Notes: a model not told the origin generated them from the sequence alone. A DNA stretch of 64,000 nt from Armatimonadota bacterium (GCA_030601885.1 JAUWAU010000016.1:66817-130816), one strand, 5' to 3'; positions 35,209 through 53,843 are shown, numbered from the stretch's first letter. Numbers and translations: made by a program.

Positions 35209-35318
35209 GTGCACCACCGGGCGTTGACATCTCCCAACGGCCAAACGCCAAGCCGGGGCAGCTTTGTCTCTGCTGGCTCGTCCCACCGCGCCCAGCCCGT
35301 TGAGGTAACCAGGCACGT

Positions 35319-36397: not shown

Positions 36398-37492
36398 ATG
36401 GACAAGCAATCGAAGCCACTCGCCTATGTGGAGGCCGGAGTGGACCAGGCGCGCGAGGCACGTGCCCTCGCCGGGCTCGTCGGCTGGCTGGCGAAGGCGA
36501 ACGAGCTCCGCGACGGGATCGGAACGTCGGTATTGCCCTCCGGCCACTACGCCACGGTGGTGGACATCGGGCACAACACCGGCCTGGCGCTCTGCACCGA
36601 CGGCGTCGGCACGAAGGTGCTCGTGGCGCAGCTCATGGGCAAGTACGACACCGTGGGCATCGACTGCATCGCGATGAACGTCAACGACCTGATCTGTGTG
36701 GGGGCCGAGCCCATCGCCATGGTGGACTACCTCGCCGTCGAGGAGGCCGACGAGGAGCTGCTCGAGGGAATCGGCAAGGGTCTGTACGAGGGGGCGAAGC
36801 AGGCCAACATCACCATCCCGGGCGGCGAGGTCGCGCAGCTCCGGGAGATCGTCAAGGGCGCGGTCCAAGGCAAGGGCTTCGACCTGGCCGGCGCCGCCTT
36901 CGGCCTCGTGCCGCTCGATGGCATGATAACGGGCGAAGACATCAAGCCGGGCGATGCGATAGTTGGGCTGGCCAGCAGCGGCATTCACAGCAATGGCTTG
37001 ACGCTGGCGCGGAAGGCGCTCCTGGAGCAACTGGGGCTTCGCGTTGACAGCCACGTGGCGGAGCTTGGGCGCACCGTGGGCGAGGAGCTGCTCGAGCCGA
37101 CGAGGATCTACGTCCGGCCGGCGCTGGAGATGCTGCGCTCAGACGCTGACGTCAAGGGCCTCGCGAACATCACCAGCGACGGCCTCACGAACCTGGCTCG
37201 ACTCTCGCGCGAGGTGGATTACGTCATTGAGGAGCATCCGGAGCCCCCGCCGATATTCCCGCTGATCCAACGCGCCGCCGGCGTGACGGACGAGGAGATG
37301 TACACGGTCTTCAACATGGGCGTCGGCTTCTGCGTGGTGTGCGCCGAAGGGGATGCGGACGCGGTCATCGAGATCGCTCAAGCGCACGAGATAGACGCGT
37401 GGAAGCTCGGCAGTGTGGAACAGGGAAGCGGACGGGTGATGCTTCGGACGCGGGGACTGGTCGGTGAGGGCGGGGAGTTCCGGCGGGTGTAG
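36398..37492 (+). CDS. purM: PurM-type AIR synthase (phosphoribosylformylglycinamidine cyclo-ligase) family protein
   Basis: Family blocks are YVEAGVDQ, LCTDGVGTKVLVAQ, GIDCIAMNVNDLICVGAEPIAMVDYLA, IPGGEVAQL, GLASSGIHSNGLTLARK and FNMGVGFCVV. The start is the ATG at 36398 (MDKQSKPLAY). Confidence 0.7.
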   Translation: MDKQSKPLAYVEAGVDQAREARALAGLVGWLAKANELRDGIGTSVLPSGHYATVVDIGHNTGLALCTDGVGTKVLVAQLMGKYDTVGIDCIAMNVNDLICVGAEPIAMVDYLAVEEADEELLEGIGKGLYEGAKQANITIPGGEVAQLREIVKGAVQGKGFDLAGAAFGLVPLDGMITGEDIKPGDAIVGLASSGIHSNGLTLARKALLEQLGLRVDSHVAELGRTVGEELLEPTRIYVRPALEMLRSDADVKGLANITSDGLTNLARLSREVDYVIEEHPEPPPIFPLIQRAAGVTDEEMYTVFNMGVGFCVVCAEGDADAVIEIAQAHEIDAWKLGSVEQGSGRVMLRTRGLVGEGGEFRRV

Positions 37493-37501
37493 GGCGAAAG
37501 A

Positions 37502-37524
37502 CACGGGTTGACAAGCAACCCGTG
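37502..37524. terminator. Hairpin between convergent genes (possible bidirectional terminator)
   Basis: CACGGGTTG-ACAAG-CAACCCGTG forms a perfect 9-bp stem with a 5-nt loop. It lies between the purM stop (37492) and the stop of 37550..38005. There is no clear U-tract. Confidence 0.35.
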
Positions 37525-37549
37525 CCACACGGCGGTGATGGCGGGGTGC

Positions 37550-38005
37550 TCAGCCTCGCCGCCGAATGACCTTCGCCAGTCGCACCTCGTTGCCCCGCTC
37601 GTTGTACACGACTTCGTCAGCGAGTCTGGTGATCAGCAGCAGCCCCCGGCCGGATGGCTCTGTGGGGGAGACGCTTTTCAGCGCCCTCCCCAGACGTCGC
37701 GCCACGTCGAAGCCATTACCCTCGTCCTTGACGCGCACGATCAGGCGCCCGTCCTCGCAGGCATGCGCGATCTCAACTCGCTTCCGCACGTCCTGCTTGT
37801 TGCCATGCATGATGGCATTGACCACGGCCTCGTGCACCGCCAATGTCATGTCGAAGGCCTCGCGGGGCCCGAGGCCGACATGCTCAACGAGCTCTCGCAT
37901 CCACTGCTTCACTCGCCCGAGTTGATCCAGGGCACTCGCGATTACCATAGCACTTCGAGGAATCGATACCCGTCTCACTTTGCTGTCATCAGTTGCGTCG
38001 CCCAC
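37550..38005 (-). CDS. Anti-sigma regulatory factor / Ser-Thr kinase of the RsbW-SpoIIAB type (HATPase_c_2)
   Basis: Family blocks are AVHEAVVNAIMHGN, VKDEGNGFD and GRGLLLITRLADEV. Confidence 0.7.
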   Translation of the reverse strand: MGDATDDSKVRRVSIPRSAMVIASALDQLGRVKQWMRELVEHVGLGPREAFDMTLAVHEAVVNAIMHGNKQDVRKRVEIAHACEDGRLIVRVKDEGNGFDVARRLGRALKSVSPTEPSGRGLLLITRLADEVVYNERGNEVRLAKVIRRRG

Positions 38006-38154
38006 ACGGCCGTACTCCGAGGGGATATTCCATATCTGACAGGCTCATTCCCAGCCCGGAGCTGCCATCGGCCGCCAGCCCCAGCTCTACAACGAGATCC
38101 TTCGCTCCCGAAGGTCGCTCAGGATGACGTTCGCCAGCACGCTTCCTCGTCGCA

Positions 38155-38862
38155 TCAGTCAATGCCATATATGCGCGCCAGATTGCGCCAGAAGATCAGC
38201 TCCAGCTCCTCTTCGGAGAAGTCCTGTCGTTTGATCGCCTCCACGCACAGCACGGGTATGGCGCCGGGGGCGTTGCTGCCGAAAACGATGCGCTCCGCTC
38301 CGACGGCCTCCACCGCGCGCTTGATGACGATGGGCTCCGCCGTCGCGATGGTCGTGCCCAGGTAGATGTTCGGGCATTTCTCCGCCGCAAGCACCGCTTC
38401 CGCCGTGTGAAGACGGTAGCCCATGTGGTCCATTATGACGGACACGTCGGGATAGCGCTCCGCCAGAGCGGCGATTTGCAGCGGCATCGCATTGTAGTCG
38501 CCCGAATGTATGTTGACTGGTATTCCCAGCTCCTGCACCTTTTCCATGATGGGGTCGAGAATGCGGTCCGTGGCCGCGTACCCGTGATAGGTGGGCATGA
38601 GCTTCAGAGCGCGCATGCCCAGCTCGGTGACGCACATCTCCAACTCAGCCACGGCCTCTTGTTCAAATCGCGGATTGACCTGACAGCAGCCGATGAACCG
38701 GTCATCGCCGGCGATCAGCTCAGCCACCATCCGGTTCGGCGGTCGAAACTTCGCCGACGGCATCCCCACCATCTTCTCGATCCCGGCCTCGTCGGCCCAG
38801 ACGAGCAGTTGCTCCCTCTCCTCGGGATCAGTGACGTACACCTCGAAATCGTAGATCTTCAT
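38155..38862 (-). CDS. Amidohydrolase-2 family metal-dependent hydrolase (TIM barrel)
   Basis: The ATG at 38862 (MKIYDFEVYV) follows AGGAGAG. Family blocks are VNIHSGD, IMDHMGY and VFGSNAPG. Confidence 0.6.
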   Translation of the reverse strand: MKIYDFEVYVTDPEEREQLLVWADEAGIEKMVGMPSAKFRPPNRMVAELIAGDDRFIGCCQVNPRFEQEAVAELEMCVTELGMRALKLMPTYHGYAATDRILDPIMEKVQELGIPVNIHSGDYNAMPLQIAALAERYPDVSVIMDHMGYRLHTAEAVLAAEKCPNIYLGTTIATAEPIVIKRAVEAVGAERIVFGSNAPGAIPVLCVEAIKRQDFSEEELELIFWRNLARIYGID

Positions 38863-38965
38863 CGCGCCGACTCTCCTGGGCTCCAATGCGATCGTCAAGG
38901 AGCCAGTGTCATTTCACCAGGCCGCGCTGCCGGTCCTGCGACGAACGGCACGACCCGCGTTGCCT

Positions 38966-40210
38966 CTATTTGGGAACTTGAGGGGTGACCGCGGTCGCGG
39001 CCGGTCGGGCCTCGGTCGGTGGCGTGCGCACGAAGCAAGCTGCGCAGGCATATATGAATGCCAGCCCTGCGGCCCCGAGGAAGACGGTCGCTGCGGAGAA
39101 GCGGGCCCACACGTAGCCACCGAGAGTGGGAATCGACATCGACACGGCATGATCCAGGGTTACGCTGAGCGCCAGCGATGGGGTCACGTCCTCCCGCTTC
39201 AGGGCGATCTTGTCGAGGTATGTCGTGCGTGCCATGCCGACGGAGAAGAGGAGCTCATCGCACACGTAACACAGACAGATCAGATACAGCGTCCAGTCGC
39301 CCAAGGGCAGGCGATCGCCGTAACCGTAGCCGAGGCACACGAGGATGAGCGCCAGGCCTTCGCCCACCAGGATGATGCGCTCGCCGACTCGGTCGATGAG
39401 CTTGCCTATTTGTGGCTGCAAGAGCACGCCGATGACGGCATTGATCATCCCCAGCTTTGCCAAGGTGGACGCCGGCTGCTGAAAGATGCGGACGAGCACC
39501 CATGGGCCGAAGGTGAGAAAGACCTGCTTACGGGCCCCAAAGAGTACGGACAGCAGATAATAGAGGCCATAGCGCCTCCGGAAGACCAGCGGCCGCTGGC
39601 GGGTGCGATCGACCGGCTCCGATCGCATGCGGAGGTAGACGGCGCTTCCGGCCAGGGCGAATACGGCGCCGGCGATGAATACCGCCGAGTAGGCGCCCGG
39701 CCAGTGCTCCGTGACGATCCACACGACGGCGCAGCCGAGAATCGTCGCCAGTCTCCTGGTGGCCCCCACCTGCCCCAGTCGCCGCCCCCGCTCCCCGGCC
39801 CGCGCTAGCTGCAGCGCGAGAGTACTGGAGGCGGGTTGCGCCAGGTGGCTGCCGGCACTCCAGACCATGAGCGCTGCAATCATGGGGCTGTAATGGCGCC
39901 CTACGAGGCCCAGGCCCAGCATTCCTGCCGCCACTCCAGCCGACGCCACCGCCCCCAGGCGTGATGCCGACAGAAAAAACAGACCGGCCCAAAACGCGGC
40001 GGCGAGAAACCCGGGCAGTTCGCGGGGGAACTCGAGGCGGCCCCGCGTTTGAGGGCCCATGTCGAAGGTGTCGCTGAGGAAGTTGTTGATGGTGCTGTGG
40101 AATACGCCGGCGGTTGCACCCACGCAGGCGATGGCGCCGAGGAAGATGAGCAATTGGGGATCGGCCGCGCGCACTCGCTCGATGGCACGGCCCAGTGGCG
40201 ATCTCAGCAT
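38966..40210 (-). CDS. MFS transporter
   Basis: 414 aa with about 12 hydrophobic segments and typical MFS loop charge patterns (RGRLEFPRELPG, GRRLGQVGATRRLA). Confidence 0.7.
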   Translation of the reverse strand: MLRSPLGRAIERVRAADPQLLIFLGAIACVGATAGVFHSTINNFLSDTFDMGPQTRGRLEFPRELPGFLAAAFWAGLFFLSASRLGAVASAGVAAGMLGLGLVGRHYSPMIAALMVWSAGSHLAQPASSTLALQLARAGERGRRLGQVGATRRLATILGCAVVWIVTEHWPGAYSAVFIAGAVFALAGSAVYLRMRSEPVDRTRQRPLVFRRRYGLYYLLSVLFGARKQVFLTFGPWVLVRIFQQPASTLAKLGMINAVIGVLLQPQIGKLIDRVGERIILVGEGLALILVCLGYGYGDRLPLGDWTLYLICLCYVCDELLFSVGMARTTYLDKIALKREDVTPSLALSVTLDHAVSMSIPTLGGYVWARFSAATVFLGAAGLAFIYACAACFVRTPPTEARPAATAVTPQVPK

Positions 40211-40293
40211 TCAAATGTACCAGGCGTCCGTGCGCCTGGGGCGGCTGCGCGCGAGTGGGAGCAGGGGCGCAGCGGATGGCCCTGGTGCTTCCG

Positions 40294-40476
40294 TCACTGT
40301 TCGGCCTGAAGGTCGTACAGTACCGTCCCGCTTAGCAGCTTCGGATAGAAATACGTTCCCTTCTGAGGCATCTGCTGACCGGCAAGGGCCACCTGCATAA
40401 CCTCATCGGGTCGCGTCGCGTTCACAAACAGCGCCATGGCCGCCTCGCTGGCATCCACGGACTGCATCGCCTCCAC
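40294..40476 (-). pseudogene. Possible C-terminal remnant of a DUF1015-family gene
   Basis: The C-terminal motif QMPQKGTYFYPKLLSGTVLY resembles the conserved DUF1015 end (MPxKSTYFYPK). Only about 60 codons remain, and there is no upstream continuation in any frame. Confidence 0.35.
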
Positions 40477-40848
40477 GGCATCGCCACCACGCGCGAGGTG
40501 TCTCGCACTATCTCAGCATCATCGTGCAGCCTCGCAAACGGCTTGACAACCGCCATTTCCCCAATCCTTTTCCCGCCGACACCGACGGCAGAGTATATCA
40601 GAGCCCCACCGCCGACGCAAGGACCGCGGCCGACGTAGGAATCTTCGCCGGCGGCGCGGAATAGGGAACCGTCCGGCCTGGGGTCTTGCGGTGGATGCGA
40701 GCACCAGGGGGATCCCGGATGACGGCCGACTCAGACCGCACGCTGTGTTGGCACAAGTATGCGCAGACGGCGCTCTGTAGGCCGCCAAGGCAGCGATATG
40801 CATACATCACAACGAGGGGCGTTCGGCTTCTCGAAAGGGGCACACGAA

Positions 40849-41538
40849 ATGCCGACTCTGAAATACCTGGGACACACCTGCTTCACGGTGACCGAGGGCA
40901 CAGACTCCGTTATCTTCGATCCGTTCCTGGAGGGCAATCCGCAGGCAATTGTTGGGCCAGACGACGTGGACGTGGTGGCCGTACTCCCCAGCCACGGACA
41001 CAGCGACCACATCGGCGACACGGTGCGGATCGCCAAGCGCTGCGATGCGCTCGTCATCGCTCCGTACGAGCTCGCCGTGTACTGCGAGCGGCAGGGCTGC
41101 AAGACACATCCGCTGCACATTGGCGGCGGCCGGGACTTCCCCTTTGGTCGCGTCAAGCTCACCATGGCGCTCCACGGCTCTGGCATCATGGAGGAGGAGC
41201 CCCCCATTTACACGGGTCCCCCGTGTGGGTTCATCCTCACCATGGGCGGCAAAACCATCTACTACGCGGGCGATACCGGGCTCTTTGGCGACATGAAGCT
41301 CATCGGCGACCTCAACACCATCGATTTGGCCCTGCTCCCCATTGGCGACAACTTCACCATGGGGATCGATGACGCGGTCCACGCGGTGAAGCTCATCCGC
41401 CCGGCGAAGGTCGTGCCGATGCACTACAAGACGTTCGATCCGATCATGGTGGAGCCTGAAGAGTTCGCTGAAAAGGTGGCAGCCCAAACTTCATCAGAGT
41501 GTATCGTAATGGAGCCGGGCGCGAGTATTGACATCTGA
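40849..41538 (+). CDS. UPF0173-type metal-dependent hydrolase (metallo-beta-lactamase superfamily)
   Basis: Family blocks are MPTLKYLGHTCFTV, FDPFLEGNP, LPSHGHSDHIGD, HIGGG, YYAGDTGLFGDM, LPIGDNFTMG and VPMHYKTF. Confidence 0.85.
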   Translation: MPTLKYLGHTCFTVTEGTDSVIFDPFLEGNPQAIVGPDDVDVVAVLPSHGHSDHIGDTVRIAKRCDALVIAPYELAVYCERQGCKTHPLHIGGGRDFPFGRVKLTMALHGSGIMEEEPPIYTGPPCGFILTMGGKTIYYAGDTGLFGDMKLIGDLNTIDLALLPIGDNFTMGIDDAVHAVKLIRPAKVVPMHYKTFDPIMVEPEEFAEKVAAQTSSECIVMEPGASIDI

Positions 41539-41625
41539 GGACGGCCACGCCTCCCCGAATCTGCCACCGAGAAAACGATCGCCATAGGTGGACCCTCGCG
41601 GGCTGCCCGTGCGCCGATGTCGGGC

Positions 41626-41838
41626 CTATGCGAAGGCATCCTGCGGGACCTTGTCCAGGTACGGCTCCTTCGTCTGCACCAGGTGCTCCCGCAGGCGGCG
41701 GTGCAGACGGCGCACGACCTGGCGGCACTTGCGCTCCTCGATCCGGTTGACGTTCTCGTCCGGATCATCGACCACGTGGTAGAGCTCGTTGAAGCCGTTG
41801 GACCGGTACACGTACTTCCACTCCCCCTGGCGGATCAT
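41626..41838 (-). pseudogene. Displaced 3' fragment of a sulfatase gene (paralogous to the 3' end of 45787..47346)
   Basis: The 70 codons are MIRQGEWKYVYRSNGFNELYHVVDDPDENVNRIEERKCRQVVRRLHRRLREHLVQTKEPYLDKVPQDAFA. The intact gene ends ...MIRQGEWKYVYRSNGFNELYHVVDDPDENVNLVEDRKYRAVVREMHRRLRDHLAATKEPRLDQVPQDPFA. Confidence 0.85.
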
Positions 41839-41847
41839 GGGCGCGCA
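41758..41847. repeat. 90-bp exact direct repeat (partner 45911..46000)
   Basis: ACGTTCTCGTCCGGATCATCGACCACGTGGTAGAGCTCGTTGAAGCCGTTGGACCGGTACACGTACTTCCACTCCCCCTGGCGGATCATG is identical at both positions. Confidence 0.9.
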
Positions 41848-41987
41848 CGTCCGCGCCGTGTCCTTCTTTCTCGGCCTCTCCTTCGGCTACATGGCCGCCA
41901 CAGTGGCCGCCGTGTGCGTCGCCTTCGCCGTCGGCAAGCCCTTCAGCTTCGGCGCCGGCCGGCGGTTGTACTTCGATATCTGATGCA

Positions 41988-44900
41988 CTAAGGCATGAGC
42001 GCCTGGTCGAGCACGGAGAGGCTGTGGAGGTCGGGGTGTGCCTTCTCCATTTGCTGGATCTGCCACTGCAGGGAGCGGCGGAGCTGCTCATCCTCTGCGC
42101 CGAGCATGGCGCTGACGATGATCGGATAGGCCGCTTCGGCGTCGAGGGATGCGAGACTCCCCGCCAGCGCGCTGCCGTAGTTGCGGTAGTTCGTGCGCCG
42201 CTCCGTCGCTGCTCTCTGCCCAAGGCGAGCGTCCTCGGGACCCATCGCCATCAACTGCTCAAGCAGCGCCGCCACGTCGCGAAACGCCGGGCGATGCCCA
42301 TGCTTCCCGAGCACGCCCGCAGCACGCACCCGTGGGGCCAAGGCTGCCGCGCCTCGGAGCACGGAGTGCACCTTCTCAAGGCCAGCGCCGCCGAGGTTGG
42401 CGAGGGCCTCCATCTCCGCGGAGCGGGTCCAACTCGCCCACGTGGCGAGGCTGGTGTCGAGCGCTTGGGAGAGGTCGGGGAGGGCCTCCGTACATCTGAG
42501 CTCGCCGAGCGCGCGGGCCAAGCTAGCGCCGCGGCGGTCCCATGCACGGTAGGCGGCCAGCAGCGCCTTTGCCGCCCCGGGATCGCCCGACCCCGCAAGG
42601 TACTCTATCACCTCGCGTGGTGGATAGGGGCCCGACGCGGCCCAAGTCACCAACTGCTCGACGGGAGGCCAGTCGTCGCTCTCGTCGGTGAAGTTGCCGG
42701 CCACGTACACGAGCGCCTTGGCTGCCGCGACCTGCACAGCGGTGCTGGGATCGCGCAGCGCTTCGTACAGCGGGGCGCGAGCGAGGGCGAATGCATGCGC
42801 GCCGGCGGCGGACTGCTCGGGATCCGCCAGGGGGACTGCCCAGCCCGCGCGAGCGCCCCGCTCGCGATCCTCCGGGGCGAGCGTCCACCGGCGGCCGCGT
42901 TTGGTGGCCAAGGAGCCGAGCCCCTCCGCCGCGCCGAGGCGCTCGTTCGCGTCGGCGGATCGCCGCAGCACGTCCACTAGCAATGGCACCGCGTCCCTGC
43001 CCAGACGGCGCACGAGCGCTTTGACCGCGGCAGCACGCGTCTCGCGGGCTTCGTGGTCCCCCCCGGTGACTCCGAGCAACTTCACGCAGAGCGGTACGAT
43101 CCGCTCGTCGTCGTACGCGGCGAGCACATCGATGGCCTCCGCCCACAGAGTCGGCTCCTGCTGTCTGAGCAGACCGAGGACCGCCGAGACGAGGCGCTCG
43201 TCGTGGTACTCGCTGGCGAGGCGGAGGTAGGCCTCCATCGAGCGGTGCCAAGCCCAGTAGTCGGAGCCCGTGTCCTCGGGCCTCGGGACGCGCAGGCCGG
43301 ACACGATATTGTCCACACCCTTCACGTCTTCGGCCAGAGCAAGCGCCTCCGTCGCGCCACGGTGCCGTCGTGCGCGGACGCCAAAGCGCTCCTTGTCCGG
43401 ATCGGGGGTCGGGATGTGCTTTGCGGCCTCGATGCCCTTCTCACCGAACTCCTGCAGCGCGAGGGCCACCAGGCTGCCGCCGCGCGCGCCCCGCACCCTG
43501 GCGAAGGACTCGGCAATCACGGGCACCGAGCGTTCCTGCTTGAGGCACGCAAGCGCGCAGACGGCAATGCCCGGGTAGAGGGGGTCGGCATCGAAGGCGA
43601 GGGCTGCTTCTAGGAGGGGGATGCCTGCTTCGCCAACGGCGTCGGCCACGTGCCTGCCGGCGGCCTGGTAGTCGCCCACGCTCGGGCCGCCGCGGTTCAT
43701 GAAGCCGCGGGGCCTGAAGGCCGCGGCCTCCACAAACACCGCCACAAGCTCCGGCTCCAGGATGCGAATGAGCAGCGCCTCGCACAACACCCGCGGGTGC
43801 CAGTCGGTGGCCGAGTCCTTGTGCTTGCGAAGAGGACCGACGGCGCGACTGCCGAGTGCGAGGATGTCGTCCCGGAGCTGCCGGTGCATGTGCTCTCGCG
43901 CCGCGACCGCAGCGTCAAGAAGAATACGCAGCCCACGCGCGTCCCCTCTGCGGGCGAGGCAGCGCGCGGCCACCTCGCGTACGGTGGGCGCCTCGGCTTC
44001 GAGGAGCTCCGCGAGGCGCTGGCGGTCGCCCCCCATCGCCGGCAGCACCGCCTCAGCCAACTCGGCCGCGGCCCTGTACTGGGCTGCATGCGCGGCATCT
44101 GGATCGTCGGCTCGCCGCACGACTTCCTCGAGCATCGGGACGGCGTCACGGCTCCCGAGGAGCAACGTGGCCACGACAACAGAATCGATGTACCGCGTCG
44201 GCTCCGGCTCAAGTAGTTCGCGATACGCCTCGAGGGCACGCTTATCGCCCATCCCCGCAAGGGCCAGTGCGAGTTGTGGCCCGTACTCGTCAGAGAACTT
44301 GTGACGGAGCAGCCCGTCGGCGAGCACCTCGAACGCGAGGCTGTTCCCCTTCAGTCGCGCGAGGCGCAGGAGGTCCTCCGAACTGAAGTACACGTAGGCG
44401 CGCTCGATGAGCAGTGGGGCGGGAATCGCCTCGGGGGTCGCGTCAAGGCGGTAGCGTTCCCAGAAGTTGGTGCGACCGAAGAGCGGAGCAACGGTGCGAT
44501 AGAACGATGCCGCTGCCTCCGGGTGCTCGAGCTCGAACAGAAGGCCGGAGGCGATCGCGCGCGTTGTCAGAGGCCCATCGCCGTGGGCGCGCTGCTTCAG
44601 GAACTCCAGTGCCGCATCAGCGAAACTCAGCATGGCCTCCCGCACGGGGGTGTAGCGCCGTTCTCTCGACGTGTTATACCGTCGCTTGCCGTCGGGGCGG
44701 GCTATTCGCCCAAGCTCAGCAAAGACGAGGGGGACGGCCTCGGGCGCGCGCATCTCGCCGAGCGCGGCGCAGTAGCCCTCGGTCTGCTTCGAGTGTGTCG
44801 CCTCTTTGAGCCCGCTCATGAGGAGGGGCGCGCTTTCGGTGTCGCCGATCCGGCCGAGGGCGAGCGCGGCTCCCGTCGCCCGCATCATGGCCGGCCAGTT

Positions 44901-45626
44901 GCGCTCACGGGTCTGCCGTGCCGCTTCCGTATAGCCGTCGGGCCATTCGGTCGGGCAGTCCCGGACCGCATCGCGCAGCACGGGCGCCGCCGGCTCGCCG
45001 ATCGCTGCCAATGCATCGACGATGCTCGCGCCGTGTCGGGAGTACACGCCGTAGCGGTGAAGAAGGCCGGGGGCAGCCTCCGGAGCAGCGAGATGCTCCA
45101 GCACACGGAGGGACCGTCTCCACAGTACCTCGTTCTCGCTTATCCTTCCTCCGGCCGTGTCGCGCAGGCGGTCGAGGATGACGGGGACGGCGTTTCTGTC
45201 TATGACGACCGTTGTGGGCTCCGGCTCCGTGCCGGGTTGGGCCGGCTTTGGCCCCTCGTAGGGCGGCAGCGTGACGCGCACGGTCGCCTCCTCGCCAAGC
45301 TCAACTTCCGCATGCCGCGCCGCCATCGCATGCAGCCACAACGCCACCTTCTCCGGCTCTTCGATGCGAAGGATGAGCGCCCTCGCCAGATTCCGCTGGC
45401 GCCAGACGGGGCTGCTCGCCTTCTGCCTCAGGAACGGAAGGATGGCCTTTCCCTCGCGCTCGAAGAGGCTGCGCCCGATCGCATGGGCTTGGCCGTCGAG
45501 CTGCGCGGTCTGGATGAACGCATCCTCGCGGCTCAGTTCGATCGGCAGAGCCGGTGTCGCGAGAACGCTGAGCGCCGCCGGCAGGAGGACGATCGAGAAC
45601 CATCGGGGATAGTCACTGAGAGGCAC
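41988..45626 (-). CDS. Giant HEAT/Armadillo-type repeat protein with N-terminal signal/anchor
   Basis: 1212 aa. The N-terminal hydrophobic segment is WFSIVLLPAALSVLATPA. Throughout there are recurrent ~30-40-aa helical repeats with A/L/R-rich patterns (e.g. AVPLLVDVLRRSADANERLGAAEGLG, VREVAARCLARRGDARGLRILLDA). Confidence 0.7.
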   Translation of the reverse strand: MPLSDYPRWFSIVLLPAALSVLATPALPIELSREDAFIQTAQLDGQAHAIGRSLFEREGKAILPFLRQKASSPVWRQRNLARALILRIEEPEKVALWLHAMAARHAEVELGEEATVRVTLPPYEGPKPAQPGTEPEPTTVVIDRNAVPVILDRLRDTAGGRISENEVLWRRSLRVLEHLAAPEAAPGLLHRYGVYSRHGASIVDALAAIGEPAAPVLRDAVRDCPTEWPDGYTEAARQTRERNWPAMMRATGAALALGRIGDTESAPLLMSGLKEATHSKQTEGYCAALGEMRAPEAVPLVFAELGRIARPDGKRRYNTSRERRYTPVREAMLSFADAALEFLKQRAHGDGPLTTRAIASGLLFELEHPEAAASFYRTVAPLFGRTNFWERYRLDATPEAIPAPLLIERAYVYFSSEDLLRLARLKGNSLAFEVLADGLLRHKFSDEYGPQLALALAGMGDKRALEAYRELLEPEPTRYIDSVVVATLLLGSRDAVPMLEEVVRRADDPDAAHAAQYRAAAELAEAVLPAMGGDRQRLAELLEAEAPTVREVAARCLARRGDARGLRILLDAAVAAREHMHRQLRDDILALGSRAVGPLRKHKDSATDWHPRVLCEALLIRILEPELVAVFVEAAAFRPRGFMNRGGPSVGDYQAAGRHVADAVGEAGIPLLEAALAFDADPLYPGIAVCALACLKQERSVPVIAESFARVRGARGGSLVALALQEFGEKGIEAAKHIPTPDPDKERFGVRARRHRGATEALALAEDVKGVDNIVSGLRVPRPEDTGSDYWAWHRSMEAYLRLASEYHDERLVSAVLGLLRQQEPTLWAEAIDVLAAYDDERIVPLCVKLLGVTGGDHEARETRAAAVKALVRRLGRDAVPLLVDVLRRSADANERLGAAEGLGSLATKRGRRWTLAPEDRERGARAGWAVPLADPEQSAAGAHAFALARAPLYEALRDPSTAVQVAAAKALVYVAGNFTDESDDWPPVEQLVTWAASGPYPPREVIEYLAGSGDPGAAKALLAAYRAWDRRGASLARALGELRCTEALPDLSQALDTSLATWASWTRSAEMEALANLGGAGLEKVHSVLRGAAALAPRVRAAGVLGKHGHRPAFRDVAALLEQLMAMGPEDARLGQRAATERRTNYRNYGSALAGSLASLDAEAAYPIIVSAMLGAEDEQLRRSLQWQIQQMEKAHPDLHSLSVLDQALMP

Positions 45627-45786
45627 GCTGTTCCACCTCCACGGCCGGCCGAGCCGCCGAAGTGCGGCCCGGTCCCTTTCTCTTGGACCCCATGGACAAG
45701 GCCCGGCGTTGCCTGACTTCGCGAGCTACCGTCAGTACCTCAGACGCTCCGGATCTGTGGCGAGTTCAGCAGCCGGCGCCGCAGCA

Positions 45787-47346
45787 CTACGCAAAGGGGT
45801 CTTGGGGGACCTGGTCGAGGCGGGGCTCCTTCGTGGCGGCGAGGTGGTCGCGGAGGCGCCGGTGCATCTCCCGCACCACCGCCCGGTACTTCCGGTCCTC
45901 CACCAGATTCACGTTCTCGTCCGGATCATCGACCACGTGGTAGAGCTCGTTGAAGCCGTTGGACCGGTACACGTACTTCCACTCCCCCTGGCGGATCATG
46001 CGCATGACCCACGCGCCGGTTCCGTGGGCCGTGCGCTCGCAGAAGGCAGCTCTGTCGCGATCCTCCTTCTCCCGGCCCTCGATGAGCTGCCGGAGGCTGC
46101 GGCCATCGATTCCCTCGGGAGCCGGCACGCCGGCGTAGTCCAGCAGCGTCGGCATGATGTCCACGGAGTTGGCGGGCGTGTTGATCACCGTGCCGGGTCG
46201 AATTCGGCCGGGGAGGCGCATCAGCATCGGCACGCGGCCGACGGCGTCGTAGAAAGCGGGGAGCGACTTGCCTACCGACCCGTGTGAGCCCTGCATGTCA
46301 CCGTGGTCCGCGGTGAAGAGCACGAGCGTCTTGTCCGCGAGGCCCAACTCCTCCAGGCGCTTCAATATGCGGCCGACGTTCCAGTCGATGAATGACACCT
46401 GCCCGTAGTAGCAGCGCAGGTACTCCCGGATGCCCTCCGGGCCGATGCAGTCGCCGAGCCGGCGGGCGACGCTGGTGCGGTACATCTCGGGGCAGATGTC
46501 GAGGTTGTCGGGGAGGGGCATCGCCGCCGGATCGTACATGCTGTAGTAGGGCTCGGAGGTGACCCAGAGGGCGTGCGGCGGCGACCAGGAGCAGGTGATC
46601 ATGAAGTTGCGGTCGCGGTACTTCTCCAGCAGCCCCATAGTCTGCTCGGTCATGAGGCTCTCGGGCAGGCCCTCGGGCGGGATGACGCTGCGCCCGATGA
46701 TGGAGATGTCCTGCTTCGGGCGCCGATCCAACGTCGCCCATACCTTGCGCCCCTCCACGACCGCGTCGGTCATCTCGACGGGGCGCCCCCAGGCGCGCGC
46801 TTCGCCGGGCTTCTTCGGGTAATCGGCGGCCGGGGAGTGTTTCTCCTGGAACACACCGTACCCACTGACGTAGCCTCGGCCCTCGTCATCGCCGCGGTAC
46901 GCGCGGAAGTCCGCCTTCGGCCCGAGATGCCACTTGCCTCGATGGCCGGTGGCGTATCGGCGGTCGAAGAGCATGTCCTCGGTCGTCACCCAGTCGCTCC
47001 GCGCGGCGTGCTCGCGGCCCCGGACGTTGGTGTTCTGCCCGTGCCGATGCGGGTACAGCCCGGTGACGACGGATGCGCGCGTGGGCGAGCAGAAGGGAGT
47101 GGGACAGAAGGCCTGCGTGAACCGAACACCCTCGGCGGCGAGACGGTCGAGGTTGGGTGTGTGGATAAGCTCGTTCCCGGCGCAGCCAAGCGTGCGGTGA
47201 TGCTGCTGGTCGGTCATGAGGAAGAGGATGTTGAGGCCGTCTCCCTCTGCATGAGCCGGCAGCTCCATAGCCTGCACGGCAGCGGCTCCGAGCAGTGTGC
47301 CCCCGGTGCGCGTGATGAACTCCCGGCGGGTCATGTCACGACTCAT
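45787..47346 (-). CDS. TAT-exported sulfatase (S1 family)
   Basis: The twin-arginine signal is TRREFITRTGGTLLGAAA. Family blocks are ILFLMTDQQH, the active-site CSPTRASVVTG and VLFTADHGDM. Confidence 0.9.
   Translation of the reverse strand: MSRDMTRREFITRTGGTLLGAAAVQAMELPAHAEGDGLNILFLMTDQQHHRTLGCAGNELIHTPNLDRLAAEGVRFTQAFCPTPFCSPTRASVVTGLYPHRHGQNTNVRGREHAARSDWVTTEDMLFDRRYATGHRGKWHLGPKADFRAYRGDDEGRGYVSGYGVFQEKHSPAADYPKKPGEARAWGRPVEMTDAVVEGRKVWATLDRRPKQDISIIGRSVIPPEGLPESLMTEQTMGLLEKYRDRNFMITCSWSPPHALWVTSEPYYSMYDPAAMPLPDNLDICPEMYRTSVARRLGDCIGPEGIREYLRCYYGQVSFIDWNVGRILKRLEELGLADKTLVLFTADHGDMQGSHGSVGKSLPAFYDAVGRVPMLMRLPGRIRPGTVINTPANSVDIMPTLLDYAGVPAPEGIDGRSLRQLIEGREKEDRDRAAFCERTAHGTGAWVMRMIRQGEWKYVYRSNGFNELYHVVDDPDENVNLVEDRKYRAVVREMHRRLRDHLAATKEPRLDQVPQDPFA
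45911..46000. repeat. 90-bp exact direct repeat (partner 41758..41847)
   Basis: Identical to 41758..41847. It lies inside the 3' end of the intact sulfatase gene. Confidence 0.9.
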
Positions 47347-47367: not shown

Positions 47368-48777
47368 CTATTCCTGCTCGATGGAATGCGGCCCAATCGC
47401 CGCCGTGCGCATCGTCCGGTAGTCGGAGTTAAACAGCCACTCGTCGCCGATCTCCCGCATCTTCCGCCACATGCGCTTGGTCATGTCGATGAGCATGTCG
47501 CGATGGGCGGGATCTTGCGCGAGATTGTGCCGCTCGTCGGGGTCGTCGGCGAGGTCGTAGAGCTCGTCTATCCCGCCGGGCGAGAAGACGAACTTCCAGT
47601 TGTCGCGCCAGACGAGTCGCTGCGTGTAGAAGAAACGCTGGCTGTAGAACTCCGCGTATGCCTCGCGCCACTCGTCCGGGTCGGCGGTCCTTTCGAGCAC
47701 AGGCCGGAGGCTTCGCCCCTGGCAGGCCGGCAACGGATCCAGGCCGACGAGATCCAGCAGCGTCGGCGCGATGTCCACCATGCTCACGAGCGTGTCGGAG
47801 TCAAGGCGGCCATCGGTCATGCCCGGTGCGCGAAGGATCAGCGGGATGTTGTACACGTCCTCGTACGACAGGCAGAGCCCCAGGCCGATGATGCCCCTGG
47901 CGCCGACCATCTGGCCATGGTCCGATGTGAAGACGATGATGGTGTCGTCGTACGTGCCGGTCTCCCGCAGCACGTCGAGCACTCTCCCGACCTCGTGGTC
48001 CACGAAGGTGATGACGGCCAGGTACGAGGCGAGGGTCCTGCGCCACTCGTCGTCCGTGATGCTGCTCCACGAGTCGCGGATCCGGCGGAGCATTTCGGGC
48101 TTGTCGAGCAGGTCGTCATGGAGGGATGCGGGCAGGGGCACGCTCTCCACGTCGTACATGCTCATGAACTGGGTGGGGGCGACGAGGGCCCCGCCCGGCT
48201 CGATCATGGAGACGAAGCAGCAGAAGGGCGCATCGCCGTCGGCGTGCCTGCGGATGAAGTCGATCCCCTTCTCGATGGCCGGATGGCGGATCGGCTCGCT
48301 GCCATCCGCCGCCTCGGCAGTCAGGACGGTGTCGCGGTAGCCCTCGTTGTGCAGGACGACCTCGGTGCCCTTGACGCGCGGCACTCTCGCTCCCTGGACG
48401 TCGGTGTCGTACTCGTCCCAGCCGAAGCGCTTCAGCTTCTCCGACTGCTCGACGTGCCATTTGCCGAAGTAGGCGTTTCGGTAGCCCGCGTCGTGCAGAC
48501 GCTGCGGCCAGTGCACGAGATGCTGCCGGATGTCGAGCCACTCCTTCTGCTGCGTGTGGGTGCAGTCCCACACGCCGTGCGTGGACGGGTACGTGCCCGT
48601 CAGCAGCGACGCGCGAGAGGGAGAACAGATGGCATTCGTGGTGTAGCAGCGGCGGAAACGGATGCCTTCGGCGGCCAGGGCGTCCAGGTTCGGCGTCAGG
48701 CACTGGCCGCCCGGCGCCATCGCCTTCTCGCCCGCGTGGTCCGTCATCAGCAAGACGACATTCGGTTGACCCGGCAT
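47368..48777 (-). CDS. Sulfatase (S1 family) without an obvious signal peptide
   Basis: The ATG at 48777 follows GAGGAG by 7 nt. Family blocks are NVVLLMTDHAG, the active-site CSPSRASLLTG and IVFTSDHGQM. The N-terminus lacks a hydrophobic or RR leader. Confidence 0.85.
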   Translation of the reverse strand: MPGQPNVVLLMTDHAGEKAMAPGGQCLTPNLDALAAEGIRFRRCYTTNAICSPSRASLLTGTYPSTHGVWDCTHTQQKEWLDIRQHLVHWPQRLHDAGYRNAYFGKWHVEQSEKLKRFGWDEYDTDVQGARVPRVKGTEVVLHNEGYRDTVLTAEAADGSEPIRHPAIEKGIDFIRRHADGDAPFCCFVSMIEPGGALVAPTQFMSMYDVESVPLPASLHDDLLDKPEMLRRIRDSWSSITDDEWRRTLASYLAVITFVDHEVGRVLDVLRETGTYDDTIIVFTSDHGQMVGARGIIGLGLCLSYEDVYNIPLILRAPGMTDGRLDSDTLVSMVDIAPTLLDLVGLDPLPACQGRSLRPVLERTADPDEWREAYAEFYSQRFFYTQRLVWRDNWKFVFSPGGIDELYDLADDPDERHNLAQDPAHRDMLIDMTKRMWRKMREIGDEWLFNSDYRTMRTAAIGPHSIEQE

Positions 48778-48987
48778 GGAGGCACTCCTCACTCCCCAGT
48801 CGTCATGCCGTGGGGCGCAGGCCGCTGTCTGAAGCGGGGTCCCGTACGGGACTTCCAGCCTGCATCCCAGGCTTCCAGCCTACAGAAAGCGCCCATCCCG
48901 CTCCGCCCGCAGCGACCACAGGGCCGAATCCGACGGCGCCCGGCTCATCATGTCTGCGAGCGACATGGAGGTGAGCCTCGCTGGGGG

Positions 48988-50028
48988 CTAGTTCGACAGA
49001 ACGACCGGCCGACCCGATTCACAAGACTCATACGCGGCCACGATAACCTCGAGCGTCTTGCGACCTTCTTCGCCCGGTATATCCGCGGGCTCGCCATCCA
49101 GCACGGCAGCCGCGAAGCGGTCCATGGCAAGGACCCCACTATCCATGGACTCGAGCTTGAGGTCAGTCCACTCTCCACTCTCCAGCCCGGGGACTTCGCG
49201 CGTGGTATACACCTGTAGTCGCGCTCTCCCCTCGAAGATGATCTGCCCGTGGGTGCCGTAGATCCTGTTCCCCGGGCCGCGTCCACCGCGGGCGCAGGAG
49301 GAGCCCAGTATGTTGCCGACGGCGCCGTTGTCGTAGCGGAGCGTGACGCTGATGAAGTCCTCCACTTCGACGTCGGTGCAGAACGTGTCGTATTCGGCGT
49401 ACACGCGAGTGGCTTCCAGGCCGGTGATGTAGCGCAATCGATCGATATCGTGCACCAGGTTCATGATGAGAATGCCGCCGCCGGACTCCTCCTTCGACTT
49501 GCGCCACGTCGTCTGAACGCGCCCCGTGAAGCCGCCCGTCCAGTAACTGTCCGCCTTGTCCCCGGCGGCGGTGAACGTCAACGCAATGACGTCTCCAATG
49601 GCGCCGGCTTCGATGAGCTCCTTCGCTCGCCGTGCCGCGGGCGTGTACCGAGTGACGAGGCGCACCATGAGCACCACCGAGGCCTTGCTGCACGCGTCGA
49701 TCATCGCGTCGGCCTGCTCCAGCGTGCAGGCGATGGGCTTCTCCACCATCACGTGCTTCCCGGCCTCGGCGGCCTGGATGGTCTGCGGCGCGTGCAGGTT
49801 GTGCGGCGTGGAGATCACGACGGCGTCAACATCGTCGCGTTCCAGCACCTCGTCGAGGCTCGTCGTCCACTCCGTGTCATACTCGGCCGCGAATGACCTG
49901 GCCACTTCCTCCACAACATCCATGGCGACGACCATCTCGGTGCGGTCGGAGTTCCGGATCGCCTTGCCCGTGGATTTGTAGGCAATCTCGCCGGCGCCGA
50001 TCATCCCAAGTCGCAGTTTGGTGGGCAT
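48988..50028 (-). CDS. Gfo/Idh/MocA family oxidoreductase (cytoplasmic)
   Basis: The start is MPTKLRLGMIGAGEIAYKS. Family blocks are VVAMDV, VVISTPHNLH and HVMVEKP. Confidence 0.85.
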   Translation of the reverse strand: MPTKLRLGMIGAGEIAYKSTGKAIRNSDRTEMVVAMDVVEEVARSFAAEYDTEWTTSLDEVLERDDVDAVVISTPHNLHAPQTIQAAEAGKHVMVEKPIACTLEQADAMIDACSKASVVLMVRLVTRYTPAARRAKELIEAGAIGDVIALTFTAAGDKADSYWTGGFTGRVQTTWRKSKEESGGGILIMNLVHDIDRLRYITGLEATRVYAEYDTFCTDVEVEDFISVTLRYDNGAVGNILGSSCARGGRGPGNRIYGTHGQIIFEGRARLQVYTTREVPGLESGEWTDLKLESMDSGVLAMDRFAAAVLDGEPADIPGEEGRKTLEVIVAAYESCESGRPVVLSN

Positions 50029-50094: not shown

Positions 50095-51231
50095 CTAAAG
50101 CCATCCCGTCAGCTTCGCCAACAGCCGCGTATACTCGATGAAGTTCGGCCAGGAGATGTCCGGCGGCACCCCGTGGTCGCACCCGGGGATGAAGCCGCCG
50201 TCCTTCAGCATAGGCGGCACCACGCGCATGACTTCCTCCTCCATGACCTTCCCGCCCGCCGCGATGGCGCGCTTGTCGATGGCGCCGTGGTAGGCCATGT
50301 CCTTCCCGAACTCTCGCCGGAACTCCACGATGTCGTTGTGCGCGGCGACCTCGATGGGGCAGCAGCAGTTGATGCCCGCCTCGATCCACAGCGGGATGAG
50401 CTCGCCGATGTAGCCGTCCGAGTCCATGTCGATGATGGGGCAGCCGCTTGCCTTGATCTCGCCGATCCACTGCTCGTAGGCGGGCATGAGGAAGCGGCGG
50501 CACATGGCGGGCGAGATCATGCTGTGCGCCTTGTAGGCCATGTCCTCCGAGATGCCCACGCGGTCGAGCTGGACGCGCTCCAGGATCGGCGCCATGGTGC
50601 GGGAGACGAAGTCGGCCCAGAATTCGCACATCTCGCCCACGAACTCCGGGTCGTCGGCCATCAGGATGCAGAGCCCCTCCATGCCGCACCACTCGCGGAG
50701 CTGCCAGAAAGGGCCGTTGAAGCTTATGCCCGTCACGTAGTCGCGGTTCCTGAGGGCTCTACATCGACGCTCGAAGTCCCTCGGGAAGCGCCCGGGCGTG
50801 TCCGGGTCGTAGCGCTCCTTCATCCGCTCCCAGTCGTCGCGGCCTTCGACGGGGAACTTGTGCCACTTGCGCGTGACGAAGTCCTTGGCGCTGCGCAGGT
50901 AGGTGTAGTCGAACTCGTCCGAGATCTCGACGACGGCGCCCATCCAGTCGCTCACGAGGTAGTGGCCGTCCTCGTGCTTGAGCACCTTCTCCTCGAACTG
51001 GGGCATCATCTTGAACGAGACGCCGACGCTTCGCGATGGCTTCGTCTTGTCGGGCTCGATGCCGAGGATCTCGAGCAGCGTGCTCATGTAATTCGCGCCC
51101 TCGGGCAGCCCCTGCTTGTACCAGGCCGCCCGTGTAGACTCCCTGGGCCCGCCGGGGCTCAGAGGCACTTTGTCCGGTTGGCCGAAGAGCAGTGTTTCGA
51201 GGTAGCGTTCGCGTTGGTTCATTGCTGTCAT
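50095..51231 (-). CDS. Uroporphyrinogen decarboxylase (URO-D) family protein
   Basis: The N-terminus MNQRERYLETLLFGQPDKVP is family-typical. The C-terminal block is GGFIPGCDHGVPPDISWPNF. It is a paralogue of 51429..52526. Confidence 0.7.
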   Translation of the reverse strand: MTAMNQRERYLETLLFGQPDKVPLSPGGPRESTRAAWYKQGLPEGANYMSTLLEILGIEPDKTKPSRSVGVSFKMMPQFEEKVLKHEDGHYLVSDWMGAVVEISDEFDYTYLRSAKDFVTRKWHKFPVEGRDDWERMKERYDPDTPGRFPRDFERRCRALRNRDYVTGISFNGPFWQLREWCGMEGLCILMADDPEFVGEMCEFWADFVSRTMAPILERVQLDRVGISEDMAYKAHSMISPAMCRRFLMPAYEQWIGEIKASGCPIIDMDSDGYIGELIPLWIEAGINCCCPIEVAAHNDIVEFRREFGKDMAYHGAIDKRAIAAGGKVMEEEVMRVVPPMLKDGGFIPGCDHGVPPDISWPNFIEYTRLLAKLTGWL

Positions 51232-51428
51232 CCGTTTTCAAGGTCCGGCCTGGTTTCTGTAGCCGGAGCAGCTTGCTCCGGCAGGCCTTAGGCTCTCCCC
51301 CTCGTGCCACAAGCCCGGAGCCCGGACTATGCAGGTCAGGCAGGGGACCCGCCTGGGCAAGCTGCCCAGGCTACAACGGGTGATATGAATGCTCGGAATA
51401 GGACGATGAGGCATTCTCCCACGGGCTA

Positions 51429-52526
51429 TCAGTTGAGCGCTGCCGGGCCCCACTCCGGCGCGTCGAAGATCTCGCGCAGCAGCTCGAGGTAGTACATGAA
51501 GTTCTCGAAAGGGATGTCCGGCGGGGCGGCGTGGTCCACCATCGGCCCGTAGCCGCCGGCCTCGACGAGCTGCGGCACCTTCGACATCACCTCTTCCCTC
51601 ACGGCCTCACGGTCCGCTGCCAGCGCCCGCTTATCGATGGCGCCGATCATCAGCAGCTCGCGCCCGTATTGCCCGCGGTACTTCAGCGCGTCGCAGTCCG
51701 CGGCCACCTCGATGGGATACACGCCGTTGACGCCGCCCTCGAGCCAGAGCGGGATGAGCTCGTCGGTGTTGCCGTCGCAGTCGAGGAGGAAGACGTCAAT
51801 CCCCCGAGCCCGCAGGAAGGCCGTGACGCGCTGGTAGCACGGCAGCATGAACTCGCGGACGAGCGAGGGCGAGATCAGGCTGCCCGTCTTCATCGCCATG
51901 TCCTCCCAGAGGACCGCGAAGTCCAGCTCCACTTCGTCCACGGCGCGCTCGATGGTGGCGATGACGAAGTCGGCGATGTAGTTGGTCATCTCGCGGACCA
52001 GCTCCGGATCGTCGTAGTACATGACCGCCAGGTGCTCCATCCCCATCCAGTTCCGGATCCAGCCGTAATAGGAGCCCCCATGAATGCCGAGCGGATAGTC
52101 GCGCCCGCTCCAGCCGCGCTTGGCGTCCTCCCAGTACTGCGGGTAGCGGCACGGCGCGGCCGGATCGAGCCGCTCCTTGAAGATCTCCCATTGCTCCCTT
52201 CCGCGGAGCGGATATGTGATCCACTGCGGCATGCCGATCTCGCGGTCCTTCCACACCCTCATGCGCCCGCCCAGCTCATCGGCGACGATCTTGTATTGCT
52301 CCGTCTCCTCTATCGTCTCTTGCTCCAGTCCGGGGACGAGCCCGAGGCTGATGGGCAGCGTCTCGTAGCGGTCGAAGCCGAAGAAGGCGTTGAAGTGGAC
52401 GTCCTTCGGGAGGCCCTCGTTCTGCCAGCGCTTCACCGTGTCGCGGAAGACCCACTGGGGCATCATGAAGGGTCGGTCGGGCTTACCGAAGTGCATGGTC
52501 TCGTGGAAGCGCTCGCGGGCGGTCAC
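51429..52526 (-). CDS. Uroporphyrinogen decarboxylase (URO-D) family protein
   Basis: The N-terminus is MTARERFHETMHFGKPDRPF and the C-terminal block is GGYGPMVDHAAPPDIPFENF. It is co-linear with its paralogue along the whole length. Confidence 0.7.
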   Translation of the reverse strand: MTARERFHETMHFGKPDRPFMMPQWVFRDTVKRWQNEGLPKDVHFNAFFGFDRYETLPISLGLVPGLEQETIEETEQYKIVADELGGRMRVWKDREIGMPQWITYPLRGREQWEIFKERLDPAAPCRYPQYWEDAKRGWSGRDYPLGIHGGSYYGWIRNWMGMEHLAVMYYDDPELVREMTNYIADFVIATIERAVDEVELDFAVLWEDMAMKTGSLISPSLVREFMLPCYQRVTAFLRARGIDVFLLDCDGNTDELIPLWLEGGVNGVYPIEVAADCDALKYRGQYGRELLMIGAIDKRALAADREAVREEVMSKVPQLVEAGGYGPMVDHAAPPDIPFENFMYYLELLREIFDAPEWGPAALN

Positions 52527-53835: not shown

Positions 53836-53843
53836 CGTGGCGG

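Follow-up and report, generated by a model that had tools for sequence, protein, structure and literature searches.

A HEAT-repeat gene probably gained behind a sulfatase gene by homologous and illegitimate recombination in an uncultured Armatimonadota strain

The window analysed here is a stretch of 64,000 nucleotides from an Armatimonadota bacterium (GCA_030601885.1 JAUWAU010000016.1:66817-130816), in which a sulfatase gene is followed by a gene for a HEAT-repeat protein and then by a displaced copy of the sulfatase's own 3' end. This arrangement probably stems from a fairly recent horizontal acquisition by one strain of an uncultured Armatimonadota species. The locus is best classed as a natural footprint of additive integration of the homology-facilitated illegitimate recombination (HFIR) type with target duplication, not as a new system. 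The reading rests on an empty site in other strains, the identity of the two sulfatase tails, a severed foreign gene end beside the fragment and the sequence of the two joints.

Organisation of the sulfatase locus

The layout was checked by open reading frame (ORF) listing, repeat finding, direct alignment and Pfam searches (Table 1). A sequence-only reading of the window, made by a model, had described the intact sulfatase gene, a 160-nt spacer, the HEAT-repeat gene and a 70-codon in-frame copy of the sulfatase C-terminus, and all four are present on the minus strand. The enzyme is a type I sulfatase with an arylsulfatase-like NCBIfam match, and sulfatases already stood in tandem at the locus, the 519-aa gene lying next to a 474-aa gene (47368..48792). 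The two sulfatase 3' ends have a spacing of 4161 nt and are 82% identical along an alignment of 217 nt, and an exact 90-bp repeat within 64 kb, here called R, is far beyond chance. The length and perfect identity of this block had been correctly described, while the coordinates of its first copy (41758..41847) were 8 too high, the true position being 41750..41839. Distal to R the ends are clearly diverged, as had also been noted, with 69% DNA identity and 13 amino-acid-changing codons over the last 40 codons. The tail attached to the intact sulfatase is termed A and the detached tail B. No Shine-Dalgarno-like sequence was seen before the fragment ATG at 41838.

The inserted block extends from 41840 to 45910 (4071 nt). 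The 149-nt spacer reported between the HEAT-repeat gene and the fragment is present but is not anonymous, as 41840..41983 on the plus strand is the end of a DUF6785/DUF6784 gene that the sequence-only reading had overlooked. This stub, termed Y, converges on the HEAT stop and is severed at its junction with R.

The empty site in other strains

Four assemblies from other samples carry the site without the insert, namely L002 (a 107-kb contig of GCA_054773435.1), L003 (a Logan contig, DRR310882), L090 (ERZ27249619) and L091 (JGI Ga0114930). All belong to the same Armatimonadota species as the window. The gene order in each is GFO/IDH, sulfatase-469, sulfatase-519 with a B tail and a metallo-beta-lactamase (MBL)-fold gene, and neither a HEAT gene nor a sulfatase 3' duplicate is present at the site in any of the four. 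The MBL-fold gene serves as the far-side marker of the empty site, adjoining the displaced B tail in the window and directly adjoining the intact sulfatase in L002, L003 and L090. L002 and L003 are fully syntenic with the window, continuing beyond the MBL-fold gene with an 87-aa ORF, a major facilitator superfamily gene and an amidohydrolase gene. Both encode P0001 (519 aa, 95% identity), the closest protein to the window sulfatase, which ends in the fragment-type tail NRIEDRKCRQVVRRLHRRLREHLVQTKEPYLDKVPQDAFA. The comparison with related genomes for a sulfatase lacking the HEAT gene, proposed with the sequence-only reading, thus yielded four such assemblies.

The flanks of the window are 94-99% identical to L002 on both sides by BLAST, and L002 11344..11563 aligns to both window copies of the sulfatase 3' end. 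L090 and L091 (99.5% identical to each other) represent a second strain type, to which the window flanks show 98% and 95.5% identity, the L002 and L090 types being 3.3% apart. The alignments to the window end within 3 nt of the right junction, at 41839 for L090 and at 41842 for L002 and L091.

Identity of the two sulfatase tails

Two metagenome-assembled genomes of a more distant Armatimonadota lineage, L004 and L008, carry an orthologous sulfatase that is 83-84% identical overall, the body of the window gene being about 77-90% identical to theirs in 90-nt windows. Sliding comparison placed a switch from L002-like to L004-like sequence at 45911/45910. Compared with the resident tail as seen in L002, the A tail shows 69% identity, against 81-82% with L008/L004, and it agrees with the L008/L004 protein at 37/40 residues (3 changes); 18 of its 22 nucleotide differences from L008 are at third codon positions. 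At the DNA level the B tail differs from the tail carried by the L002 sulfatase in 2 of 120 nt (98.3% identity), and it agrees with the L008/L004 protein at 26/40 residues. The closer likeness of the outgroup protein to A had at first suggested an ancestral A tail, with B as a paralogue or a decayed piece, but the codon-level counts speak against this. At third codon positions B differs from L008 in 13/40 codons, the mean for the gene body being 12.7 (standard deviation 3.4), and its 14 amino acid differences from L008 compare with 11-12 replacements in the preceding C-terminal 40-codon windows. The near-identity to the L002 tail, the average third-position distance and the replacement-rich neighbouring windows show that B is native, the resident's own fast-evolving tail, and A the conserved tail of another lineage.

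Long-term pseudogene status or neutral decay of the B tail, suggested by the spread of its differences from L008 over codon positions (10, 7 and 13), was rejected since the neighbouring windows are equally replacement-rich. A deep paralogue was likewise rejected, the third-position distance being average and the residues NRI..KC and QTK.PY.D being common to distant homologues.

The R block of the window differs from L002 at 3/90 positions and is therefore of resident type, while its two copies show no differences from each other. Two alleles, G in GGGGGAG and AAC, occur in both copies and are absent from L002, L003, L090 and L008. Sharing of these window-unique alleles indicates that both copies derive from a single template, which belonged to the window lineage at a time when it had already been separate for a while.

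Evidence for a foreign origin of the inserted block

Read on the plus strand, 41840..41983 encodes GAHVRAVSFFLGLSFGYMAATVAAVCVAFAVGKPFSFGAGRRLYFDI*, matching the 3' end of the 681-aa DUF6785 gene of L008 at 87.2% of nucleotides and 43/48 residues. The resident species has its own intact DUF6785 orthologue (P0128) at another locus, beside an aminotransferase gene (L088, contig 1 of GCA_054773435.1), and stub Y is just 80.9% identical to it while the flanks shared by the window and GCA_054773435.1 are 94-99% identical; over this stretch the identity between L008 and L088 is 83%. The differences of stub Y fall mostly at third codon positions, indicating that until recently it belonged to a functional gene of a third lineage. 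The search for HEAT homologues recovered none from GCA_054773435.1. The distance of stub Y from the species' own orthologue, the 69% identity of the A tail and the unrecovered HEAT homologue together argue that the insert is foreign. The sequence-only reading had proposed that an incoming segment displaced the old gene end downstream, and the empty site with an attached B tail, the foreign-type A tail and the xenologous stub bear this out.

No second copy of stub Y or of the 160-nt spacer was found in the window or in the loci of relatives compared, and the spacer showed no homology to L002, L004, L005 or L008 and no match in a scan for promoter and terminator consensus sequences. The gene order in L008 is sulfatase, convergent GH127, DUF6785 and aminotransferase, with the sulfatase 2.4 kb from the DUF6785 3' end. 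Given this proximity, the most economical interpretation is that a single contiguous donor piece of 4071 nt brought in the A tail, spacer, HEAT gene and stub together. Base composition was considered as transfer evidence and dropped, as the GC content of the HEAT gene (0.70-0.73) is above that of the flanks yet its GC3 of 0.82 lies within the range of neighbouring genes.

The region 3' of the orthologous sulfatase varies in the clade. L008 (5262..9694) has an intact GH127 gene (beta-L-arabinofuranosidase-like) and DUF6785, L004 (4496..4611) is missing 1.37 kb of the GH127 gene, and the putative donor of the window block would have had the HEAT gene at that position. DUF6785/DUF6784 genes lie directly upstream of glycoside hydrolase genes both in the window (55907..58117, fucosidase) and in L008 (7649..9694, GH127), which suggests that these proteins are transporter-like partners of glycan-degrading enzymes in Armatimonadota. 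Ahead of its first sulfatase, next to GFO/IDH, L008 has an additional gene that was considered as an insertion sequence (IS) and proved to be a DRL-type oxidoreductase.

Table 1. Positions of the features discussed, numbered from the first letter of the window
Feature	Position	Strand	Length	Remarks
Sulfatase, whole gene	45787..47346	-	519 aa	Pfam Sulfatase + SGSH_C
Resident-type body (X) of chimeric sulfatase	46001..47346	-		97-100% identical to L002 in most 90-nt windows up to the repeat
Repeat R, copy 1	45911..46000	-	90 bp	exact; encodes MIRQGEWKYVYRSNGFNELYHVVDDPDENV within the intact sulfatase
Attached A tail, foreign type	45787..45910	-	last 40 codons + stop
Spacer, sulfatase stop to HEAT ORF	45627..45786		160 nt	belongs to the inserted block
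HEAT-repeat gene (cargo)	41988..45626	-	1212 aa	Pfam HEAT_2; hydrophobic N-terminus
Gap between HEAT stop and fragment	41839..41987		149 nt
Stub Y, 3' end of DUF6785/DUF6784 membrane-protein gene	41840..41987	+	last 47 codons + stop	stop at 41981..41983
Repeat R, copy 2	41750..41839	-		upstream edge 41839/41840 = illegitimate junction
Displaced B tail, detached	41626..41749	-	last 40 codons + stop	native tail of resident sulfatase
Sulfatase C-terminus copy	41626..41838	-	70 codons	in frame
MBL-fold gene	40849..41538	+		Pfam Lactamase_B_2; native convergent neighbour of sulfatase
Second locus of the same layout	53723..55857 (L002 1664..3766)	-		8 kb from the sulfatase case; window-wide repeat scan
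Alpha-L-fucosidase	54760..55857	-		Pfam Alpha_L_fucos
Membrane ORF	53844..54722	-	292 aa	no family match
Copy of fucosidase 3' end	53723..53842	-	120 nt	97% identical to 54766..54885; spacing 1043

The joints and a proposed mechanism

The left joint lies in frame after ..GAGAACGT, the end of a conserved DPxExN motif, inside the sulfatase 3' homology. The right joint (41839/41840) fuses the DUF6785 stub to the sulfatase at a 4-nt CATG microhomology, with patchy similarity nearby. The context of CATG is ..CTCATGCCGCC in the DUF6785 gene of L008 and ..GCGCATGATCCGCC in the sulfatase, the sequences at the joint being ..CGTGGGCCCTCATGCCGCC in L008 DUF6785, ..GGGTCATGCGCATGATCCGCC in the resident sulfatase and ..CGTGCGCGCCCATGATCCGCC in the window. 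The stretch of 90 nt that the two joints bound in the resident gene occurs twice, each copy being of resident type. The insert (41840..45910) contains one ORF, with HEAT-type domains only, no integrase, recombinase or transposase domain and no terminal inverted repeats, and tRNA and Rfam scans of the whole window gave no match, which speaks against an attachment site of the tRNA type. In appearance the process is generic recombination, homologous on one side and illegitimate on the other, without a recombinase gene or cassette system.

Before the event the B-tailed sulfatase stood tail-to-tail with the MBL-fold gene, the order seen in the four other assemblies. The donor would have been a third, related lineage resembling L008, with a neighbouring sulfatase, HEAT gene and convergent DUF6785 gene, from which the transferred piece of 4071 nt would have carried the last 40 sulfatase codons with the 160-nt spacer, then the HEAT gene and, from the 3' end of the DUF6785 gene, 145 nt. 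The left joint in the homologous sulfatase end kept the enzyme gene intact with a new tail, while at the right joint CATG links the DUF6785 stub to the same resident gene, 90 nt further upstream. The outcome is a duplication of 90 nt of resident sequence, with the native tail stranded beyond the cargo as an untranslated remnant.

The route may be HFIR in a broad sense, of which two variants fit. In one, a broken or replicating resident 3' end would prime on the donor at the conserved motif, copy 4 kb and return to the resident template 90 nt upstream at CATG, as in template switching or break-induced replication (BIR). In the other, a circularised donor fragment would integrate by a single crossover with later homogenisation of the repeats. 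A plain single crossover with a diverged donor would be expected to leave one donor-type repeat copy; the template-switch variant is preferred because two resident-type copies need no extra step. In either case, recombination between the 90-bp repeats would be predicted to delete the HEAT gene precisely and restore the B-tailed sulfatase.

A second locus and other signs of recombination

An alpha-L-fucosidase gene elsewhere in the window is followed by a membrane ORF and a copy of its own 3' end (Table 1). The layout recurs in this lineage, and its presence at the fucosidase locus of L002 indicates that it is older than the sulfatase event. In L002 the copies are 84-85% identical, with about 60 near-identical nt by the junction followed by a diverged distal part and different stop contexts (FPG* against FPEA*). 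Sequence comparison indicates that the window copy has been homogenised to 97% by gene conversion between the attached and displaced tails. Two footprints of different age within 12 kb might hint at a favoured route of operon growth, e.g., template switching at gene ends, and not at two unrelated accidents. This reading, in which one particular process has repeatedly added genes behind glycan-degrading enzyme genes in this Armatimonadota lineage, is unlikely. Such a process would begin within the final 100-200 nt of a coding region, leave the enzyme intact with a swapped tail and be recognisable by a 60-90-nt resident-identical block followed by the old diverged tail.

The alignment of the window to L002 is a mosaic, with a median identity of 97-98% and patches of 70-90%, some of which carry L008-like alleles; this pattern indicates that recombination with diverged relatives is frequent in this lineage. 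In the 3' region of the upstream sulfatase gene, dense strain-specific substitutions occur at 47512..47560, where 9 of about 16 window-unique alleles are those of L008. Like clusters occur at 49200..49800 and in codons 1-120 of the 519-aa sulfatase, with surroundings 97-100% identical to L002/L090, which suggests that short tracts were recombined in from diverged relatives or from paralogues. Three stretches (51193..51492, 37493..37542 and 32997..33196) are essentially unalignable to L002 (18-58% identity in 100-nt windows) between flanking genes that are 95-99% identical; they are probably intergenic and look like replaced or indel-rich spacers.

Other repeats were also seen. Intergenic repeats at 19690..19806 and 23085..23276 share 72-nt exact and 46-nt 98% matches about 3.4 kb apart, with a related 47-nt piece at 13682..13728. 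They hold a long internal palindrome (GCCCGCCTACGCGG ... CCGCGTAGGTCGGGC) and look like a family of repetitive extragenic palindromic (REP) or miniature inverted-repeat transposable element (MITE)-like elements. L008 has a direct repeat of 350 nt (83-91% identity) at 11056..11404, in the 5' region of a 430-aa gene, and at 14732..15077, 3.7 kb downstream after a 784-aa gene; it may represent a tandem paralogue or a further scar.

Alternative explanations

The absence of the insert from other strains could be secondary, the block having been acquired earlier and the 4161-bp unit lost from L002/L003 and L090/L091 by recombination across the 90-bp repeat. A perfect direct repeat with its copies 4 kb apart is a deletion substrate, and the product would be the gene with body X, R and B tail that is found in L002 and L090. 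The strains form a star-like, mosaic trio in which one or two losses are possible, and tail gene conversion is known in the lineage from the fucosidase pair (97% in the window, 84% in L002), such that identity of the R copies need not mean youth. This history is nevertheless unlikely. It would require a later conversion to account for the two window-unique alleles, which are missing from the empty-site strains and L008, and both the L002 and L090 types, 3.3% apart, would have to have lost the unit unless they are sisters. The R copies also show no mutual differences against 3/90 from L002, and the displaced B tail is undecayed, at 2/120 nt from L002; the shared alleles and the intact state of this tail argue for a young event. 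An assembly artefact, in which the assembler joined an empty-site chromosome through the shared repeat to a separate molecule (a circle of 4161 bp or a tandem array) or to another organism's DNA, is very unlikely even though the insert is known from one sequencing run (SRR14872663) only. The k=31 Logan contigs of that run end 30 nt inside each repeat copy (L001 = 41810..45940; L089 = 33120..41779) and are compatible with a loop, but L001 also runs 30 nt from Y into R, placing the Y/R junction in an independent assembly, and the parents share only CATG at that point, so that no de Bruijn graph could have made the junction. The 90-bp repeat is shorter than ordinary reads and larger k values and is normally resolved, a non-replicating circle would itself be an excision product of the integrated form, and the same layout is found at the fucosidase locus in two independent assemblies.

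A refuting scenario named with the sequence-only reading was that the HEAT gene and the fragment are ancestral remnants of a tandem sulfatase array. A B-type paralogue would then once have lain between the DUF6785 and MBL-fold genes with the HEAT gene native, and deletion of the paralogue's 5' 1350 nt and most of the DUF6785 gene would have been followed by gene conversion equalising 90 nt. Tandem sulfatases (474 aa and 519 aa) are indeed already at the locus, the Y/R joint could equally well be a simple microhomology deletion joint, and the A tail is nearer than B to the L008/L004 orthologue protein (37/40 against 26/40). However, such an array was seen in no relative: none has a second sulfatase or a HEAT gene at the site, which in L008 is occupied by GH127 and an intact DUF6785 gene. 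In four assemblies the B tail directly continues this gene body, and at synonymous positions its distance to L008 fits an orthologue and not a deeper paralogue. Stub Y, at 81% to the species' own DUF6785 gene, is no local remnant, and a full-length B-type paralogue with another body was not among the 120 best sulfatase homologues. Both the array and the series of deletions and conversion that it needs are highly improbable.

Several points weigh against a recent gain by horizontal transfer. A single 131-kb contig provides the linkage across the 90-bp repeat, and the Logan assembly of SRR14872663 breaks inside both repeat copies. The window, L002 and L090 types are roughly equidistant and mosaic, and the L008 outgroup roots them poorly with conflicting signals, such that parsimony favours insertion in the window lineage over loss in the other strains only weakly. 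A contiguous sulfatase-HEAT-DUF6785 donor order was found in no collection and a HEAT protein scan of genome contigs was empty, while the closest HEAT homologue (L005, 75% aa) has unrelated flanks. With regard to mechanism, classical HFIR deletes resident DNA, so that a template switch, sister copy or circular intermediate is needed.

The HEAT-repeat cargo

Among 5.8 billion proteins, five homologues of the HEAT protein were found beyond the window's own, one at 75% aa identity (L005) and four at 42-43%. The protein had no informative match in PDB sequences, NCBIfam, or plasmid or phage collections. The homologues at 42-43% sit beside glycoside hydrolases in other glycan-degradation contexts, which fits a role in glycan degradation, by association only. 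Lying 160 nt behind the sulfatase gene in the same orientation, the HEAT gene is probably co-transcribed with it.

Comparison with known systems

HFIR combines one homologous joint with one joint at a 3-10-bp microhomology in non-homologous DNA, the classical form deleting resident DNA (PMC3240628). Most events in that study were single crossovers of circular molecules that duplicated 109-950 bp of the homologous segment (PMC3240628). In that paper and the work it cites, HFIR and additive integration were defined in transformation and conjugation experiments with S. pneumoniae, Acinetobacter baylyi and P. stutzeri (PMC3240628). The window locus shares the homologous joint (45911/45910), the CATG joint, the foreign insert and the lack of a recombinase or mobile element. 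It differs from the classical form in duplicating 90 bp where resident DNA would be deleted, which matches either the duplication class (PMC3240628) or a template switch, and from a single crossover in that both repeat copies are of resident type. In addition, the homology on one side may be confined to a short conserved run (GAGAACGT) instead of a long anchor, and the window represents a natural event in an uncultured phylum.

Microhomology-mediated template switching, in the form of BIR or microhomology-mediated BIR, has been described mainly in yeast and human genomes. It accounts for insertion from an ectopic template, a microhomology return joint and, where the return point lies upstream, a short target duplication, with foreign DNA as the presumed ectopic template in bacteria.

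Displacement of a metabolic gene's end has a precedent in icd-e14-icdC of E. coli K-12, where e14 is a 15-kb prophage with its own site-specific recombinase and a defined att site, as outlined in PMC13626634 (citing Hill et al. 1989). On that account the two cases are alike in that the metabolic gene is kept intact by the incoming 3' end, the old C-terminal fragment lies beyond the insert as a pseudogene and removal of the insert rejoins the gene to its former tail, and unlike in that the window insert is a single gene with no recombinase and an illegitimate far joint in an unrelated stub. More generally, direct repeats (90 bp, 4161 nt apart) and a replacement 3' end are shared with site-specific elements such as e14, phage 21 in icd and tRNA-gene islands, although the window insert lacks the integrase or recombinase gene of such integrative elements. 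The insert also differs from transposable elements (IS, MITE or transposon), having no transposase, no inverted repeats at the ends of 41840..45910 and a duplication of 90 bp.

The sequence-only reading had likened the locus to Rhs and CdiA tips. The resemblance in layout holds, as in orphan rhs-CT/cdiA-CT modules the fragment keeps a conserved upstream coding stretch and a diverged end without initiation signals, and recombination between main gene and fragment swaps the tail and deletes the interval (PMC3967940). The likeness goes no further: the window has no toxin or immunity gene and no DPxGL or VENN motif, its shared block is 90 bp instead of about 500 bp (PMC3967940), its cargo is a 1212-aa HEAT protein and its right joint is an ordinary microhomology in an unrelated gene. 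Moreover, the two window tails are homologous versions of the same 40 residues, and selection for tail swapping is without evidence. The accompanying suggestion that such displacement may load non-toxin cargo behind a catabolic gene is supported, albeit by a process that looks generic and with a metabolic-gene precedent in icd-e14-icdC.

Implications

The novelty is modest, a known process and layout being seen in a new phylum with unusually complete evidence. While HFIR is well known from laboratory experiments, clean footprints in nature have rarely been documented with the full set of four elements present here, namely the empty site, the resident tail, evidence for a foreign insert and both joints at nucleotide resolution. 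The case illustrates how a large gene can be gained without a mobile element and without loss of target gene function, the gain being reversible via the repeat that it created. For annotation, it warns that short in-frame fragments of gene tails can be scars of gene gain and not decayed paralogues, and that spacers beside such fragments may contain stubs showing the donor gene order. If the layout were a phylum-wide habit, counts of such scars would directly measure recombination-driven gene gain in uncultured bacteria.

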